This document shows positions 2,991-60,181 of a stretch of 64,000 nucleotides of DNA, piece after piece. Numbering within the stretch: the stretch's first letter is position 1; each line of letters starts with the position of its first letter. The notes under the pieces were generated by a model, which saw only the letters and a list, made by a program, of their open reading frames with translations, did no database searches and was not told the DNA's origin. Origin of the DNA: Chloroflexota bacterium (GTDB lineage: Bacteria; Chloroflexota; Dormibacteria; CF-121). Position numbers and translations under genes: made by a program. The stretch covers positions 471 to 64,470 of the forward strand of contig VBID01000114.1 in the NCBI GenBank assembly GCA_005880615.1, written 5' to 3'.

Positions 2991-3074
2991 GCCCGGGTGG
3001 TGGAACTGGTAGACACGCAGCTTTGAGGGGGCTGTGAGCGCAAGCTTGTAAGGGTTCAAATCCCTTCCCGGGCA
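2991..3074 (+). tRNA. tRNA-Leu (anticodon GAG), CCA not encoded
   Basis: Acceptor GCCCGGG/CCCGGGC, D arm TGGTGGAACTGGTAGACAC, anticodon arm CAGCT-TTGAGGG-GGCTG, long variable arm, T arm AAGGG-TTCAAAT-CCCTT; TACAAT 11 nt upstream. Confidence 0.97.
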
Positions 3075-8574: not shown

Positions 8575-9162
8575 ATGGCTGCGCCGGCCGCCCAGTTCTT
8601 TCGGTCGCAGCCCAGCCGGGGAGGGCAGCTCCGCCTCTGGAGCGTCGGCCTGACCCTGGCGGCCTCGGTCGGGCTGGCGGTGGCCGCCGCCCATCTGCCG
8701 CCAGTCATTTCCTCGGGGGCGAACCTTCGCGACCCCGACCAGGTGATCTACGCCCGCAACATCTGGCAAGAGAGCCAGACCAGCCTGGTGGTGCTCGCCC
8801 TGTTCATCCCGTGGCTGGGCTACGGCCTGCTGTTGCGGGGCGCGCCCTGGGGCCGGCTAGCGGTGCTGGTGCTAGCAGGGGCCGGGGCGGCGCTCGGCCT
8901 GTGGATGACCGCGCATAGCCTCGGTCTGTATGCGGCGAAGCCAGAGTACGTGGCAGGGGTCGTCACCCGGGTTGACGGCCGGCAGATTACGCTGGCGGCG
9001 CGTCCGCCCCGGACCTTCTACCTGGTCGTCTCAGAGGCCGAACTGCGCGCGGCGCAGATCTGGGACCGGCCGGGCAACGCCGTGGGAATGTGGGTGGCGC
9101 CCAACGGCCAGGCGGGCTTCATCGGACGGCCCAGTGGTGGCAAGCCCATCCTCCAGAGCTAA
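8575..9162 (+). CDS. Hypothetical multi-TM membrane protein
   Basis: 195 aa, three hydrophobic segments and a beta-rich C-terminus; its stop codon is the MITE end. Confidence 0.7.
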   Translation: MAAPAAQFFRSQPSRGGQLRLWSVGLTLAASVGLAVAAAHLPPVISSGANLRDPDQVIYARNIWQESQTSLVVLALFIPWLGYGLLLRGAPWGRLAVLVLAGAGAALGLWMTAHSLGLYAAKPEYVAGVVTRVDGRQITLAARPPRTFYLVVSEAELRAAQIWDRPGNAVGMWVAPNGQAGFIGRPSGGKPILQS

Positions 9163-9343
9163 GCCCGGAACCACCGAAGTCGGGCTTGCATCTCGGGCGC
9201 GGATGTGGCCGATCCGGGCGTCGTCTCCTGCGCGCGCTCGGTCACGCATCGACGGATGCGCTCTCTCGCGTGCTCGTCGCCTCCTTCGGCTCGGCACACC
9301 CCGCATCCCGATCTGCGTCGCCCGATCGGTGGTTCCGGGCTTA
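9160..9343 (+). mobile_element. MITE copy 2 (perfect terminal inverted repeat, TA on both sides)
   Basis: TAAGCCCGGAACCACCGA ... TCGGTGGTTCCGGGCTTA. Confidence 0.9.
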
Positions 9344-18248: not shown

Positions 18249-19226
18249 TTACCATTGCACGTCGCGGTCGACATAGCCTTGCTGGCGTCCGCGGCGATCG
18301 GCCCATCGAAAGACCAGAGACGCAACCACGACCGTCCCGATGGTGCTGGCCACCAGCCGGATCAGGACGTCGACGTCCGACAGCCCCGGGAACATCTGAT
18401 AGGCCTGGGCCTGCAGGAGCGAACGCCGCACCAACTCCATCCAGTAGGCGAGCGGCGACAGGGCCGCGATCGTCGCCAGCGGGCCCGGCAGGATCCCAAT
18501 CGGAAAGATGGCACCAGAGATGACGTAGAGGACACCGGCCCCGATCTCTCCATAGCCGTGTGTATCGCGTCCGGCCAGCAGCAGGAAGGTAAAGGCCATC
18601 CCGATGGCCACGATGGCGGCGAACGCGAGCAAACAGGCCACCCCGAGCAGCAGCCAGTTTGCGCGCAGCGGGTTGATCGGCAAATGCAGAGTGATGGTCC
18701 CCAGTCCGATCACGATGACCGCCGAGGCGGCTGCCCCCGCTAGCTGGGCAATGGCCCGGCCCACCAGGTACACGCCGAACGGCAGCGGTGCGATGTAGAT
18801 GTACTTGAGCATCCGGTACTGGCCGCGGTCGTCCAGGATGGCGTTGGCGAACCCCGACAGCCCCTGCTGCACGAATGACCAGAAGGCGGTGCCGGTGATC
18901 AAGAAGGCCAGGTAGGTGGACGCCCGACCACGGGTGATCACCTGGTAGATGACCGTCAGGATCAGGGCGGCCGAAATGGGCCGCAGGACGGAGTAGACAA
19001 GGAACACGCCGGGTGATGTCCAGTTGCTCGACACCTGCCAGCCCAGGCGAGCCGAGGCACCCAGACCACGCCAGGTCTGAATGCCGGCCGTTGTTAGCCC
19101 GAATCCACCGAATCGAACTTGCATATTGGGCGCGGGGCGAGCGAGCGGGGCGTCGTCTTCTGCGCGCGTTCGGTTACGCACCAACGGGTGCGCGCCCTCG
19201 CGTGCTCGTCGTCTCCTTCCGCTCAT
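18249..19226 (-). CDS. ABC-2 type permease; native start separated by a MITE
   Basis: Six-TM ABC-2 pattern (SGAIFPIGILP, SPLAYWMELVR); in-frame ATGs at 19238, 19226 and 19124 lie inside the MITE. Confidence 0.85.
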   Translation of the reverse strand: MSGRRRRAREGAHPLVRNRTRAEDDAPLARPAPNMQVRFGGFGLTTAGIQTWRGLGASARLGWQVSSNWTSPGVFLVYSVLRPISAALILTVIYQVITRGRASTYLAFLITGTAFWSFVQQGLSGFANAILDDRGQYRMLKYIYIAPLPFGVYLVGRAIAQLAGAAASAVIVIGLGTITLHLPINPLRANWLLLGVACLLAFAAIVAIGMAFTFLLLAGRDTHGYGEIGAGVLYVISGAIFPIGILPGPLATIAALSPLAYWMELVRRSLLQAQAYQMFPGLSDVDVLIRLVASTIGTVVVASLVFRWADRRGRQQGYVDRDVQW

Positions 19227-19275
19227 CTCGCCGCGCATCCCAATCTGCGTCGTCCGATCGGTGGATCCGGGCTTA
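19094..19275 (+). mobile_element. MITE copy 3 (most diverged), flanked by TTA/TTA
   Basis: TTAGCCCGAATCCACCGAATCG ... CGATCGGTGGATCCGGGCTTA; 179-bp net insertion. Confidence 0.88.
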
Positions 19276-20091
19276 AACCCATCGCATGCTCAGCCGAGCG
19301 TCCCGCCGCGCCAGCCGTTCCATCATTCGCAGCGCCCACTGCGCGCTCAGGAGATAGGCCGGAATCTGGAGGGCAATCAAGCCAGCTTCCCAGGCCGGCG
19401 CGAGGAAAACCGGGGTGCCCGGAAGGAGGACCTGGCGGATCGCGTCCAGCCCCAGCGTCAGCGGGATGATGGAGGCTGCCCCGGCCACGTAGGCGCCCAG
19501 CGAGTGGACCGGAAAATAGAAGCCGCTCAGAAAATACACCGGCTCCTGCATGCCGTCGAGGGCATGCCAGGCGGAACGGCCGAAAAAGAGGAAGAGGCTG
19601 GCCAGCAGCATACCCAGGGCATAGAGGGCCAGGAGGGTCAGCGCCAGGAGGCCCACGGCCGGCGCGATTCCCGCGGGGCGGTAGTGGACCTGGAAGAGCA
19701 GCGAGGTCACCAGCAGCACGGCCGCCGCCCGCTGCGCCGTGTAGAAGATGCCGCCCAGGGCCATCCCGAGCAGGATGGCGGTGAACGTGGTCGGCGCCAC
19801 GGTGAACAGCTCGAGGTTCGATCCGCCGCGCTCCCAGATGAAGTTGCCGGCCATGTCAAACACGATGTTTTGCCAGAACGCCAGCAGCGTGCCGCCCAGG
19901 ACAACGAACCCGGTGTACTCGGCCGGCGCTCGCAGGGCTCGATAGACGTACACCATAGCGACCGTCCCGATCAGGGGCAGCACGATCTCAATCACGACCC
20001 AGCTCCAGTTCCGGGCGTGCCCGACGGTTCGCGGATAGGCGCGCGCGATCACGGTCTTGACGAAGATCCGGAGTGCCGAGGGACGGCTCAC
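19273..20091 (-). CDS. ABC-2 type permease
   Basis: GTLLAFWQ, GSNLELFTVAP, YFLSGFYFP, IPLTLGLDAIRQ. Confidence 0.88.
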   Translation of the reverse strand: MSRPSALRIFVKTVIARAYPRTVGHARNWSWVVIEIVLPLIGTVAMVYVYRALRAPAEYTGFVVLGGTLLAFWQNIVFDMAGNFIWERGGSNLELFTVAPTTFTAILLGMALGGIFYTAQRAAAVLLVTSLLFQVHYRPAGIAPAVGLLALTLLALYALGMLLASLFLFFGRSAWHALDGMQEPVYFLSGFYFPVHSLGAYVAGAASIIPLTLGLDAIRQVLLPGTPVFLAPAWEAGLIALQIPAYLLSAQWALRMMERLARRDARLSMRWV

Positions 20092-21101
20092 GGCGCTTCC
20101 TCCTCGGCCATGCCGCGCCCCACCAACTTGACGAAGGCGTCCTCCAGGCTCGGGTCGCGTTTCTGCAAGCCCAGCACCTCCCGACCGGAGCCGGCGACGA
20201 TGCCCAGCACCGACGTGAGCACGCCGTCGTCTGCCAGCAACAGGCTGAAGCGGTCCGCCCCGTCCTGCTGGGTGACCGTCGCCGCCGTGACGCCGTCCAC
20301 TCGCCGCAGCTCGGTCAGCAGGTCGCGGCCAAGGGTCAGCTGCAGGTCGACGATGACGTCCTGCTGGACCTGCTGCTTGAGGCTGGGGGGCGTTCCCTGC
20401 GCCACGATCCGGCCGTGGTTGACGATGGCGAGGCGGTCACACAGCTCGTCCGCCTCGTTCATGTAGTGGGTGGTCAGGATGACGGTGCGGGTCGGATCCT
20501 CCTGGACCCAGCGCCGCACTTCCCGGCGCACGTCCCGGGCCGCCCCCACGTCGAGCGCCACGGTCGGCTCGTCCAGGAACAGGATTCGCGGATCCGTCAC
20601 CAGGCCCCGGATGAGGTTCATCTTCTGCCGCATCCCGCTGGACAGGGCGCTGACGTAGCGGTCGGCCGCCTCGGTCAACCCTAGCCGCTCCATCAGCTCA
20701 TCGATCCGGGCCCGCGCGACCCGGCTGGAGAGGCCGTAGAACTGGCTGAACATCCAGATGTGTTCGCGGGTCTTCATCAGGCCGTAGCCGGAGTTCTCGC
20801 CGCCAGATACCATCGCAATCCGATGCCGCAGCTCCTGGAAATCGCGCGCCACATCGAGGTCGTCCACGAACGCCTGGCCGGAAGTTGGGAGGAGGAGCGT
20901 CACCAGGATCTTGATCAGCGTGGTCTTGCCAGCGCCGTTGGGGCCGAGCACGCCGAAAATCTCCCCGCGCGCGACCGAGAGGTCGATCCCGTCCAGGGCT
21001 ACGACGGACTCCCGACGCGACTGGTAGACGCGCCGGAGCGCGATGGTCTGAACCGCTGCCGATTGAATGAGGTCAGGCATCGAGATCGCCGATGCTACCA
21101 T
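20088..21101 (-). CDS. ABC transporter ATP-binding protein
   Basis: GPNGAGKT, LSSGMRQK, FLDEPT, TTHYM. Confidence 0.95.
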   Translation of the reverse strand: MVASAISMPDLIQSAAVQTIALRRVYQSRRESVVALDGIDLSVARGEIFGVLGPNGAGKTTLIKILVTLLLPTSGQAFVDDLDVARDFQELRHRIAMVSGGENSGYGLMKTREHIWMFSQFYGLSSRVARARIDELMERLGLTEAADRYVSALSSGMRQKMNLIRGLVTDPRILFLDEPTVALDVGAARDVRREVRRWVQEDPTRTVILTTHYMNEADELCDRLAIVNHGRIVAQGTPPSLKQQVQQDVIVDLQLTLGRDLLTELRRVDGVTAATVTQQDGADRFSLLLADDGVLTSVLGIVAGSGREVLGLQKRDPSLEDAFVKLVGRGMAEEEAP

Positions 21102-24864: not shown

Positions 24865-25609
24865 CCGCGCGCTACAGGGACAGGTCGCCCTGGTCACCGG
24901 AGGCAGTCGCGGGATCGGGCGGGCGGTGGCGCTGGGCCTCGCCCAGGCCGGGGCCAACGTCGCTATCAGCTATCGGGTGAAGCAGGCGGAGGCCGAGGCG
25001 GTGGTGGAGGAGCTGCGGCAACACGGGGTTGAGTCGGTGGCGCTGCAGGCCGACCTGGCCGAGGTGGCGGCGCCGGCCACGCTGATCGGCGCCGTCCTGG
25101 CCCGCTGGGGCCGGCTGGATGTGTTGGTCAACAACGCCGGCATCACCCGGGACACGCTGGTGATGCGGATGAGCGAGGCCGATTGGGACCTGGTCATCCA
25201 CACCAACCTGCGGGGGCCGTTCCTGGTCAGTAAGGCGGCCCTGCGGCCGATGCTGAAGCAGCGCTACGGGCGGATCGTAAACATGTCCTCGCTGGCTGGG
25301 GTCGCCGGCAATGCCGGGCAGGCCAACTACAGTGCGGCCAAGGCCGGCCTGATTGGCTTTACCAAGTCGCTGGCCAAAGAGGTCGGCTCCCGCAACATCA
25401 CGGTGAATGCGGTCGCCCCCGGGTTCATCGAGACCGACCTGACCCGCGACCTCCCGGCGGAGTTGCTGGACCGCGCCCGCGCGGCGGCGGCCATCCCCCG
25501 CCTGGGGACACCAGATGAGGTCGCTGCCGCGGTGGTCTTCCTGGCGTCCCCGGCGGCGGCCTACGTCACCGGGCAGGTGCTGGGCGTGGACGGGGGGCTA
25601 CCAATCTAA
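24857..25609 (+). CDS. fabG: 3-oxoacyl-ACP reductase
   Basis: TGGSRGIG, NNAGITRD, YSAAK. Confidence 0.95.
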   Translation: MPDRALQGQVALVTGGSRGIGRAVALGLAQAGANVAISYRVKQAEAEAVVEELRQHGVESVALQADLAEVAAPATLIGAVLARWGRLDVLVNNAGITRDTLVMRMSEADWDLVIHTNLRGPFLVSKAALRPMLKQRYGRIVNMSSLAGVAGNAGQANYSAAKAGLIGFTKSLAKEVGSRNITVNAVAPGFIETDLTRDLPAELLDRARAAAAIPRLGTPDEVAAAVVFLASPAAAYVTGQVLGVDGGLPI

Positions 25610-25785
25610 GCCCGAATCCACCGAATCGAACTCGCATTGTGGGCGCGGAGCGGCCGATCCGGGCGTTGGCTCCTGCGCGGTCGGTCACGCATCGACGGAT
25701 GCGCTCCCTCCCGTCCCCGTCGCCGCCTTCGGCTCGGCACGCCCCGCATCCCAATCGGCGTCGTTCGACCGATAGATCCAGGCTT
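25607..25785 (+). mobile_element. MITE copy 4
   Basis: Begins at the fabG stop, TAAGCCCGAATCCACCGAATCG, and ends GATAGATCCAGGCTT. Confidence 0.85.
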
Positions 25786-59596: not shown

Positions 59597-60181
59597 ATGG
59601 GTGCCACCTCCAATCCTCGCCGCGCGCTGGCCGGATACCTGACGGTAGCGGCCGGCATCGCCCTGCTGTTCGGGGTGGTGGCGCTGGCCGCTCTCCGTCC
59701 CGCGGACGGGCTGGCCTGGGTCCGGCTGCCCCAGCTGGGCGCCGACTTCGGACTCGATCCCGGCCTGAAGACTCGACCGCTGCGCTCGACCATCGTTGCC
59801 GAGGCGTTACAGGATCGCCTCGACAGCTCAACAGGCCCCGAGGCGAGTCTCGTTATTCCTCCGATCCTGGCCATGACCCCGCCCAACGCCGTCCCCAGCG
59901 CGGCTGGTCCGGGAAGACCGGTGGCTGTCGTGAAGCCAGTACCCAACCCGAGCGCCGCGCCGAGCCCCACGCCAATCCCCACGGCCAGCCCCACGCCAAT
60001 CCCCACGGCCAGCCCCACGCCAATCCCCACGGCCAGCCCCACGGCCAGCCCCACGGCCAGCCCCACGGCCAGCCCCACGGCCAGCCCCACGCCTGCCCCA
60101 ACGCCGGCTCCAACTCCCTCGCCGACTCCATGCAACCGGGGTGGCGGCGCCGGCGCCGGCACTGGAAACTGCAAACGGTGA
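59597..60181 (+). CDS. Membrane-anchored Pro/Thr-stalk protein B (partner of the diguanylate cyclase gene)
   Basis: N-terminal TM ending LAALR, motif PLRSTIVAEALQD, PT-rich tail, C-terminal Cys pair; GTGA overlap with the cyclase. Confidence 0.8.
   Translation: MGATSNPRRALAGYLTVAAGIALLFGVVALAALRPADGLAWVRLPQLGADFGLDPGLKTRPLRSTIVAEALQDRLDSSTGPEASLVIPPILAMTPPNAVPSAAGPGRPVAVVKPVPNPSAAPSPTPIPTASPTPIPTASPTPIPTASPTASPTASPTASPTASPTPAPTPAPTPSPTPCNRGGGAGAGTGNCKR
59963..60082 (+). repeat. Perfect tandem repeat: 3 x 24 bp plus 4 x 12 bp
   Basis: AGCCCCACGCCAATCCCCACGGCC x3 (SPTPIPTA) then AGCCCCACGGCC x4 (SPTA). Confidence 0.95.

Follow-up and report, generated by a model that had tools for sequence, protein, structure and literature searches.

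The operon and the insertion between its permease genes

A three-gene exporter operon of the ATP-binding cassette (ABC) type is found in a 64,000-nucleotide (nt) stretch of DNA from a Chloroflexota bacterium (NCBI GenBank assembly GCA_005880615.1, contig VBID01000114.1, positions 471 to 64,470), referred to here as the window. It encodes an ATP-binding subunit and two ABC-2 permeases, and a MITE, or miniature inverted-repeat transposable element, lies at the junction of the two permease genes. All genes and features of the operon read on the minus strand, and coordinates are those of the whole 64-kb window. The first gene (20088-21101) is assigned to a DrrA-like ATP-binding subunit from its open reading frame (ORF) and from Pfam ABC_tran matches in orthologous loci; its top NCBIfam match, drrA, scores 281.6 bits, under the curated cut-off of 312. 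Permease 1 (19273-20091, 272 amino acids) starts at GTG 20091, which is preceded by a strong Shine-Dalgarno sequence, GAGGAGGAAG, with a duplex energy of -11.6 kcal/mol, and this site indicates that the organism uses Shine-Dalgarno sites. The gene ends ATG CGA TGG GTT TAA, with the stop codon at 19275-19273. The conserved body of permease 2 (18249-19093) is intact in the window and has a ratio of nonsynonymous to synonymous substitution rates (dN/dS) of about 0.1-0.15 against relatives.

The body of the MITE (19097-19272, 176 nt, GCCCGGATCC...GGATTCGGGC) folds into a long imperfect hairpin and belongs to the 'GAGATGAGC' subfamily. It reads GCCCGG...CCGGGC between the TAA at 19275-19273 and a second TAA at 19096-19094, beyond which the sequence continues with CAACGGCCGGC... 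Empty sites in relatives identify the second TAA as the right copy of a 3-nt target-site duplication, the left copy of which is the permease 1 stop codon. Removing 179 nt restores ATG GGT TTA ACA ACG GCC, beginning at the ATG at 19280-19282 and overlapping the end of permease 1 (ATGGGTTTAA).

An earlier reading of the window's letters (the original prediction) had proposed that the MITE split an overlapping start codon and that the native permease 2 start is ATG 19282, and had suggested a comparison with loci lacking the MITE. That comparison confirms ATG 19282 as the native start. The closest MITE-less protein relatives are 284-286 amino acids long and begin MGLAAAG, MGLATAG, MGVVAAG or MGLAIPAAG, and the empty site of MITE-less orthologues reads ATGCGATGGGTCTAGC..., with the native overlapping junction ATGGGTCTAG. 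At four such loci permease 1 ends MRWV* and permease 2 begins at the overlapping ATG, the DNA reading ...AGCATGCGATGGGTCTAGCGGCGGCC in L003 and L004 and ...GGGTCTAGCAACGG in L146 and L147. The filled and empty sites and the TAA duplication all agree with a split start. The native start has almost no Shine-Dalgarno complementarity of its own (-3.7 kcal/mol), which fits coupling through the overlap.

Empty sites for the 19094-19272 insertion were seen in these four loci and in L149. The latter is a third MITE-less allele, on a background like that of L001, and reads GGGTATGACAACGG; its junction, ATGGGTATGACAACGG (L149 1103-1270), retains the old ATG and adds a new ATGA overlap. The JGI call for its permease 2 is 282 amino acids long and starts MTTAG. 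This junction could be either an independent variant of the TTAA site or an excision footprint.

In the filled allele, ATG 19282 opens a short ORF of 19 sense codons, MGLSPDPPIGRRRLGCAAR, which was created by the insertion and enters the 5' arm of the MITE (19223-19282 with its stop). Its TGA (19225-19223) overlaps an ATG (19226-19224) that is in frame with permease 2. The ATGA so formed (19223-19226) is where one gene caller starts the protein P0136, and from it the permease would gain 43 element-derived residues (MSGRRRRAREG...). The coordinates, the 179-nt removal, the 19-codon ORF, the TGA/ATG overlap and the 43-residue N-terminus of the original prediction are all borne out by the sequence. 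A further ATG that it did not include, at 19236-19238, is the actual opening of the permease 2 frame (18249-19238), which is stop-free through the whole element. This ATG lies in the conserved MITE motif GGGATGCG, would give a 47-residue extension (MRGEMSGRRRR...) and starts the 329-residue gene call P0126. A third in-frame ATG (19122-19124), near the 3' end of the MITE and common in the family, is the start chosen by NCBI and JGI (291 amino acids); it has no Shine-Dalgarno sequence and is paired in the helix.

A MITE family of soil Limnocylindria

The element is a prokaryotic MITE: it is short, has terminal inverted repeats, produces a 3-nt duplication, has empty sites and occurs in dispersed copies. 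Four copies lie in the window in the same orientation (2646-2824, 9162-9341, 19096-19273 and 25609-25784). By sequence match and alignment, the first two belong to a GTGCCGAGCC subfamily and the last is a further paralogue whose site is empty in L055; a 22-nt terminus probe gave 0 chance matches in shuffled sequence. Scanning species-representative genomes with a degenerate 24-nt pattern for the apex of the hairpin yielded 61 contigs and 63 full copies. The contigs come mostly from two metagenome-assembled genomes (MAGs), Candidatus Limnocylindria DASPZT01 and the Eisenbacteria-labelled DASQAY01, and about 35 of the 63 copies lie within one MAG. Contigs of DASQAY01 (labelled Candidatus Eisenbacteria; for example L055, L011, L016 and L020) are 92-94% identical to the window and carry the same MITE family, which suggests that this MAG is mis-binned or mislabelled.

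Typical copies are 176-180 nt long, under the approximately 300 bp expected of such elements, and carry no transposase gene. The terminus AGCCCGGATCC... forms part of inverted repeats in which AGCCCGGATCCACCGATCGG pairs with CCGATTCGGTGGATTCGGGCT. In an alignment of 37 independent copies, columns 1-22 pair with columns 159-182 with compensatory changes, and the consensus fold comprises 59 predicted pairs, of which 14 show compensatory double changes. The transcript strand of the permease-locus element folds as a long hairpin (-114.6 kcal/mol, z = -7.5), in which all three MITE ATGs fall within the predicted helix, with ATG 19282 and the TAA unpaired at its base. No Rfam family matched the element at gathering or permissive thresholds, the sole gathering-level match in the window being the tRNA at 2991-3074, and a promoter and terminator scan found no promoter-like or terminator-like site within the element.

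The family is abundant in soil Candidatus Limnocylindria (Chloroflexota). In soil metagenome contigs, word depth is 300-2100 in the element against 16-20 in its flanks, an excess of 50-130 times. It is a conventional MITE family and probably an undescribed one; no paper in the library searched links Limnocylindria with 'transposable'. A search of the fetched loci for paired termini 0.6-3.5 kb apart found no autonomous insertion sequence with the same termini, giving just neighbouring MITEs around ordinary genes.

The target triplets flanking the copies are rich in T and A: TAA at 19094-19272, TAG at 25609-25784, and TTA at other sites. Of 54 copies, 17 have one end directly against the stop codon of an ORF at least 150 codons long, where random positions would give 1.2% per side. 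The insertion on the permease 1 TAA is therefore typical of the family, for which stop codons are frequent targets because A/T-rich triplets are otherwise scarce in a genome of about 70% G+C.

The copy at 25609-25784 is missing from L055, 92% identical to the window, where the empty site reads CTCTAGCC. The surrounding DNA there (L055 1411-1500) reads ...CCACTCTAGCCGC..., the TAG of which is duplicated in the filled site; the latter also has five extra bases (GGCCA/TGGCC) at one end. Beside the tRNA at 2991-3074, the window carries its MITE (2646-2824) on one side of a segment of about 130 nt, and in L042, L051 and L024 a MITE lies on the opposite side. The two neighbouring sites received their insertions independently, and the different position in relatives indicates that the family was recently active.

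Two further patterns were noticed among the fetched contigs. A central stretch of about 65 nt surrounding the apex (GGAGGCGACGAGCACGCGAGGGAGCGCATCCGTCGATGCGTGACCGAGCGCGCGCAGGAG) is shared by L014, L019, L036, L040, L061, L063 and L065, which otherwise have markedly different arms and termini and come from contigs labelled Dormibacterota, Actinomycetes and Chloroflexi, reflecting either modular evolution of MITEs or a conserved internal module. Pairs of apices exactly 128 nt apart occur in L047 (89-240), L060 (41-192) and L062 (7154-7305); here one element appears to have entered another's 3' arm at ...GACGCCCGG|AGCCCGGGG..., which would produce nested or tandem copies.

The start-like features belong to the inserted subfamily

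The original prediction had further claimed that the ATGA is unique to the permease-locus copy and that copy-specific changes rescued the downstream permease. Uniqueness holds inside the window, where the other three copies read GTGCCGAGCC and the 19096-19273 copy reads GAGATGAGCG. It does not extend to related MAGs. At the ATGA site of the 63 copies fetched from them, 22 read GTGCCGAGC and 15 read GAGATGAGC, while another four read GAGATGAGA, GAGATGAAG or a truncated GAGATG. Five of the 15 represent the permease locus in relatives, and the remaining ten lie at unrelated loci with unrelated flanks, as do the four variants. In the curated set of independent copies GAGATGA is present in 14 of 37, which leaves 13 of 36 others at unrelated, mostly intergenic sites.

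The GAGATGAGC copies form a subfamily defined on both arms of the hairpin. The 3' arm carries matching changes, GCTCGC(C/T)-CCCG in place of GGCCGCATCCG, that keep the helix (pair counts CG:23/UG:14, GC:22/GU:15 and CG:28/GC:9), and the subfamily is one base shorter, at 178 nt. The nearest paralogues of the permease-locus copy, L026 (96% identical) and L027 (94%), both have the ATGA together with the GCGCGGC variant, and L026 additionally shares AATATG and CAGAAG with it. Only two changes are private to the permease locus relative to its subfamily, G>A at 19212 and C>T at 19184, and neither makes a start codon.

The other candidate starts are family features too. All four window copies have ATG 19238, as do 44 of 51 independent copies, and it is common across the whole family together with ATG 19124 (in A.ATGC.AG). 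An open frame into a neighbouring gene is unremarkable on its own, since ORFs that start at MITE ATGs and extend into flanking sequence for 100 codons or more are found in 9 of 44 copies and 10 of 43 copies, frequencies to be expected of G+C-rich DNA. At an unrelated gene (L038 1291-3012, minus strand), a mechanically called ORF of 573 amino acids begins in another MITE copy (MRGAPSRRRRRAREGAHPSV... / MRGAPSRRRRRAREGAHPSVRDRPRAEDDA...), and such an element-derived 'N-terminal peptide' is a recurrent feature of ORF lists.

The alignments show that every start-like feature that lies upstream of permease 2 in the filled allele was already in the subfamily that inserted, and that no rescuing mutation followed. 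The ATGA, ATG 19238, ATG 19124, the 178-nt length and the open frame are all subfamily features, which removes the basis for a rescue of permease 2 by copy-specific changes.

A young insertion segregating on several backgrounds

The same insertion is found in L001, L002, L055, L066, L148, L150-L153 and L155. All MITE-bearing alleles have the TTAA...TAA junction and a T at 19184, and all but L066 have an A at 19212; both bases are absent or nearly absent from paralogous copies. These common features point to one insertion only. The possibility that the site was hit more than once, independently, was rejected on the common junction and the two diagnostic bases, and on the MITE-less alleles of the same backgrounds, which read CTAG or ATGA. 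An assembly artefact was likewise rejected, the allele being present in independent assemblies (NCBI MAGs, JGI, ENA and Logan contigs).

The element is far less diverged than its surroundings. It differs at no more than 2 of 179 nt (at most 0.011) between alleles whose flanking genes are 3-8% apart in DNA; the window and L055, for instance, differ at 180 positions over 2240 nt in total and at 2 within the 182 nt of MITE. Synonymous divergence (dS) between MITE-bearing alleles in the flanking genes is 0.07-0.35, so that divergence in the MITE is lower than at flanking synonymous sites by a factor of 20-30. Lineage-specific differences reappear at 12-25 nt beyond the element. At the same time, MITE-less L149 matches the flanks of L001 (permease 1 dS 0.014), MITE-less L146 and L147 match those of L148 and L055 (dS 0.024-0.042), and the listed proteins of the 90% cluster are split about evenly between MITE-bearing (291 or 329 amino acids) and MITE-less ones (284 or 282).

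Together these comparisons show a young insertion in a TTAA-type site that arose once and segregates with MITE-less alleles on near-identical backgrounds. It appears, from the divergence patterns, to have spread between backgrounds by homologous recombination. Separately, the window and L001/L002 differ by 0-2 per 100 nt upstream (19400-20700) and by 6-8 per 100 nt downstream (18700-19093), a jump that suggests a recombination breakpoint at or near the element.

The dN/dS check proposed in the original prediction gives 0.1-0.15 for permease 2 everywhere and is uninformative on rescue or expression because almost all of the divergence predates the insertion. An insertion this young and still polymorphic has also left no time for detectable selection on the extension. 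The proposed selected re-initiation fails on the same grounds, the ATGA predating an insertion that is itself recent. The locus is an ordinary, young insertion polymorphism, not a selected rescue.

Possible translation of permease 2 in the filled allele

Taken as a whole, the account that a MITE of the GAGATGAGC subfamily landed on the overlap, that no adaptive rescue followed, that the allele is young and recombining, and that permease 2 is reached by a relay of ribosomes is judged moderately probable. On this account the hairpin MITE inserted at the permease 1 TAA stop and cut permease 2 from its ATG, because the permease 2 start overlapped that stop. Ribosomes ending permease 1 would re-initiate, as on the uninterrupted junction, at the old ATG 19282 and would translate the 19-codon ORF, melting the 5' arm of the hairpin. 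At TGA 19225 translation would end, to begin again at the overlapping ATG 19226 or else at ATG 19238, which lies 13 nt upstream. This would yield a permease with an Arg-rich cytoplasmic extension of 43-47 amino acids. The insertion would have persisted since its subfamily happened to fit the reading frames, and not through repair.

The separate parts of this account carry different weight. Permease 2 is probably still made, since the allele is common and usually intact. The stop/start relay is the favoured route to it, as the only one that draws on the features in place, and is given slightly less than an even chance; it is mechanistically possible and would be a lucky inherited property of the inserted sequence, not an adaptation. 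At 19226-19223 the stop of the upstream ORF overlaps a downstream start that has no strong ribosome-binding site, and the Shine-Dalgarno duplex energies of the three MITE ATGs are -3.5, -4.0 and +1.9 kcal/mol, the last being that of ATG 19124. The gene calls differ between 19124 (NCBI and JGI, 291 amino acids), 19238 (P0126, 329 amino acids, identical to the window ORF) and 19226 (P0136). The predicted tryptic peptide AEDDAPLARPAPNMQVR would come only from a start at 19226 or 19238, and the predicted peptide FGGFGLTTAGIQTWR is in both the long form and the form starting at 19124. Three metatranscriptomes from a linked study held nothing from the operon beyond conserved ABC ATPase motifs of other organisms, and a metagenome scan with the permease returned only two close relatives, L066 and L067, the others being at most 60% identical.

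Several points weigh against the relay account. The NCBI and JGI pipelines favour ATG 19124, and two successive re-initiations would lower the yield. Spread by recombination is read from divergence patterns only, and the implied breakpoints, within 12-25 nt of the element, are unusually tight. Two window-like MITE-bearing alleles, L155 (the source of P0136) and P0014, have a 1-nt deletion that frameshifts permease 2, which implies that permease 2 may be dispensable or already impaired. The deletion in L155 lies in a GGGG run at about position 1217 (about 18555 in the window), in a sequence otherwise matching the window at 1886 of 1889 nt; P0014 has the same frameshift in a second, slightly different sequence from another data set.

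A stronger version of the relay account sees the subfamily as 'operon-compatible': its ATGA and stop-free frame would pass ribosomes on through the 19-codon ORF without polar damage, the allele would have spread by recombination of very short tracts between soil Limnocylindria lineages up to about 8% apart in DNA, and permease 2 would exist as two N-terminal isoforms in a natural population. This extended form is considered rather doubtful.

A competing route is a start at ATG 19124, with the hairpin opened by the 19-codon ORF or with independent initiation there. It would change the protein least, placing nine element residues (MQVRFGGFG) where the native Met-Gly stood, and its ATG, present in most family copies and in frame here, was chosen by two annotation pipelines. 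When the 5' arm is held open in the predicted fold, the region around this ATG is about 48% unpaired as against 19% otherwise. It nevertheless has no Shine-Dalgarno complementarity (+1.9 kcal/mol) in an organism that uses such sites, lies about 100 nt past the stop of the short ORF, which is far for re-initiation, and is base-paired in a helix of -115 kcal/mol. A 291-residue permease started in this way is thought unlikely.

Given about the same low credence is the proposal that permease 2 goes untranslated or barely translated in the MITE-bearing alleles, which would then be null or hypomorphic, near-neutral or mildly deleterious, in a dispensable exporter. Every candidate start falls inside a very stable hairpin and lacks a ribosome-binding site, the insertion is polymorphic and not fixed, and the frameshifted permease 2 of L155 (P0136) and P0014 has its counterpart in no listed MITE-less allele. 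Set against this, the filled allele is found on at least four diverged backgrounds and in about half of the listed members of the 90% cluster, and permease 2 is intact in 10 of the 12 MITE-bearing alleles seen. There is no excess of amino-acid changes (1 amino acid in 10 nt differences between L148 and L146, and 4 in 14 between L001 and L149), and the native coupled ATG and the stop/start relay are both present.

The near-identity of the MITE might instead mean that the element itself, as a functional RNA or as a coding segment, is under strong purifying selection, an explanation that seems very improbable. The contrast of 2 differences in 182 nt with about 8% in the flanks would fit it, and nine variable MITE sites among orthologous copies, classified by hand in the permease frame, comprise five synonymous and four nonsynonymous changes, slightly above chance for synonymous ones (P about 0.08, not significant). 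The L066 copy, however, has about nine changes (5%) with flanks near those of the window (dS 0.02-0.07), indicating that the element is free to drift; the existence of MITE-less alleles on these backgrounds indicates that it is not required; and neither hairpin nor coding constraint would freeze every base. Weakest of all, and close to dismissed, is the model of the original prediction, in which selected mutations after the insertion turned GTGCCGAGCC into GAGATGAGCG and restored permease 2 translation through the ATGA: the stop/start arrangement is mechanistically neat and within the window confined to this copy, but the ATGA recurs in 13 of 36 independent unrelated copies with complementary changes on the other arm, and is carried by the nearest paralogues, L026 and L027, so that 19212 and 19184 remain as the only private changes.

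Relation to known repeats and to translational coupling

Repeats that fuse with ORFs or donate start codons are well documented, among them Rickettsia palindromic elements (RPEs), ERIC, BOX, Neisseria REP2 and Borrelia inverted repeats (PMC10969869, PMC3184786). RPEs are inserted in frame in protein genes, according to reviews of that work (Ogata et al. 2000, as reviewed in PMC10969869 and PMC3184786). The Limnocylindria MITE resembles them as a short palindromic mobile repeat in a coding region with a stop-free frame that could be translated in a host protein. RPEs, for their part, are internal, in frame and retained across species, and encode a conserved peptide. The MITE, by comparison, lies at the extreme 5' end, shifts the frame (179 nt), needs a new start, and is young; its translation is predicted only. 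Retention across lineages under purifying selection, as for RPEs, was not observed among the alleles compared, the insertion being polymorphic within near-identical backgrounds.

Neisseria REP2 and Borrelia inverted repeats furnish downstream genes with a ribosome-binding site together with an ATG (PMC3184786). The likeness is that a dispersed repeat gives the adjacent gene its start codon. The Neisseria and Borrelia repeats bring a promoter as well as a ribosome-binding site and lie upstream of genes, whereas the MITE has neither a promoter-like nor a usable Shine-Dalgarno site, sits inside an operon and would depend on coupling.

The Correia elements of Neisseria and the ERIC/IRU elements of enterobacteria are also hairpins of 100-200 nt with terminal inverted repeats that lie between co-transcribed genes, and by analogy the MITE may be expected to act on mRNA folding and downstream expression. 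They have no sequence relation to the Limnocylindria MITE. The effects of Correia and ERIC/IRU elements on RNase III processing and mRNA stability have been shown experimentally, while the present element is known from sequence alone. Correia elements duplicate TA, as against the 3-nt TAA, TAG or TTA of the Limnocylindria family.

Translational coupling through overlapping stop and start codons takes place at ATGA or TGATG junctions in bacterial operons. The likeness to this coupling is one of sequence: the 19-codon ORF ends in such an ATGA overlap, and the native junction ATGGGTCTAG and the L149 variant ATGGGTATGA overlap as well. Different from ordinary coupling, the filled allele would place two couplings in series through a short ORF derived from a repeat.

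Implications and a minor observation

Within an uncultured soil phylum, the locus provides a clean example, with filled and empty sites, of a MITE at an overlapping stop/start junction. The comparison also illustrates how a plausible story of selected rescue vanishes once more copies of a repeat are compared. If the relay is true, nature would here offer an example of translational coupling in series by way of sequence derived from a repeat. The signs that an insertion allele has moved between diverged backgrounds are of modest interest for Limnocylindria population genomics. For annotation, the analysis flags the inconsistent public starts of permease 2 (291, 287 and 329 amino acids) and a recurrent false N-terminal peptide (MRG.MSGRRRRAREGAHP...) that results from mechanical ORF calling beside the MITE.

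Elsewhere in the window, positions 59911-60126 hold a tandem array of 12-nt units (GCCAATCCCCAC / GGCCAGCCCCAC), about 18 units in all.

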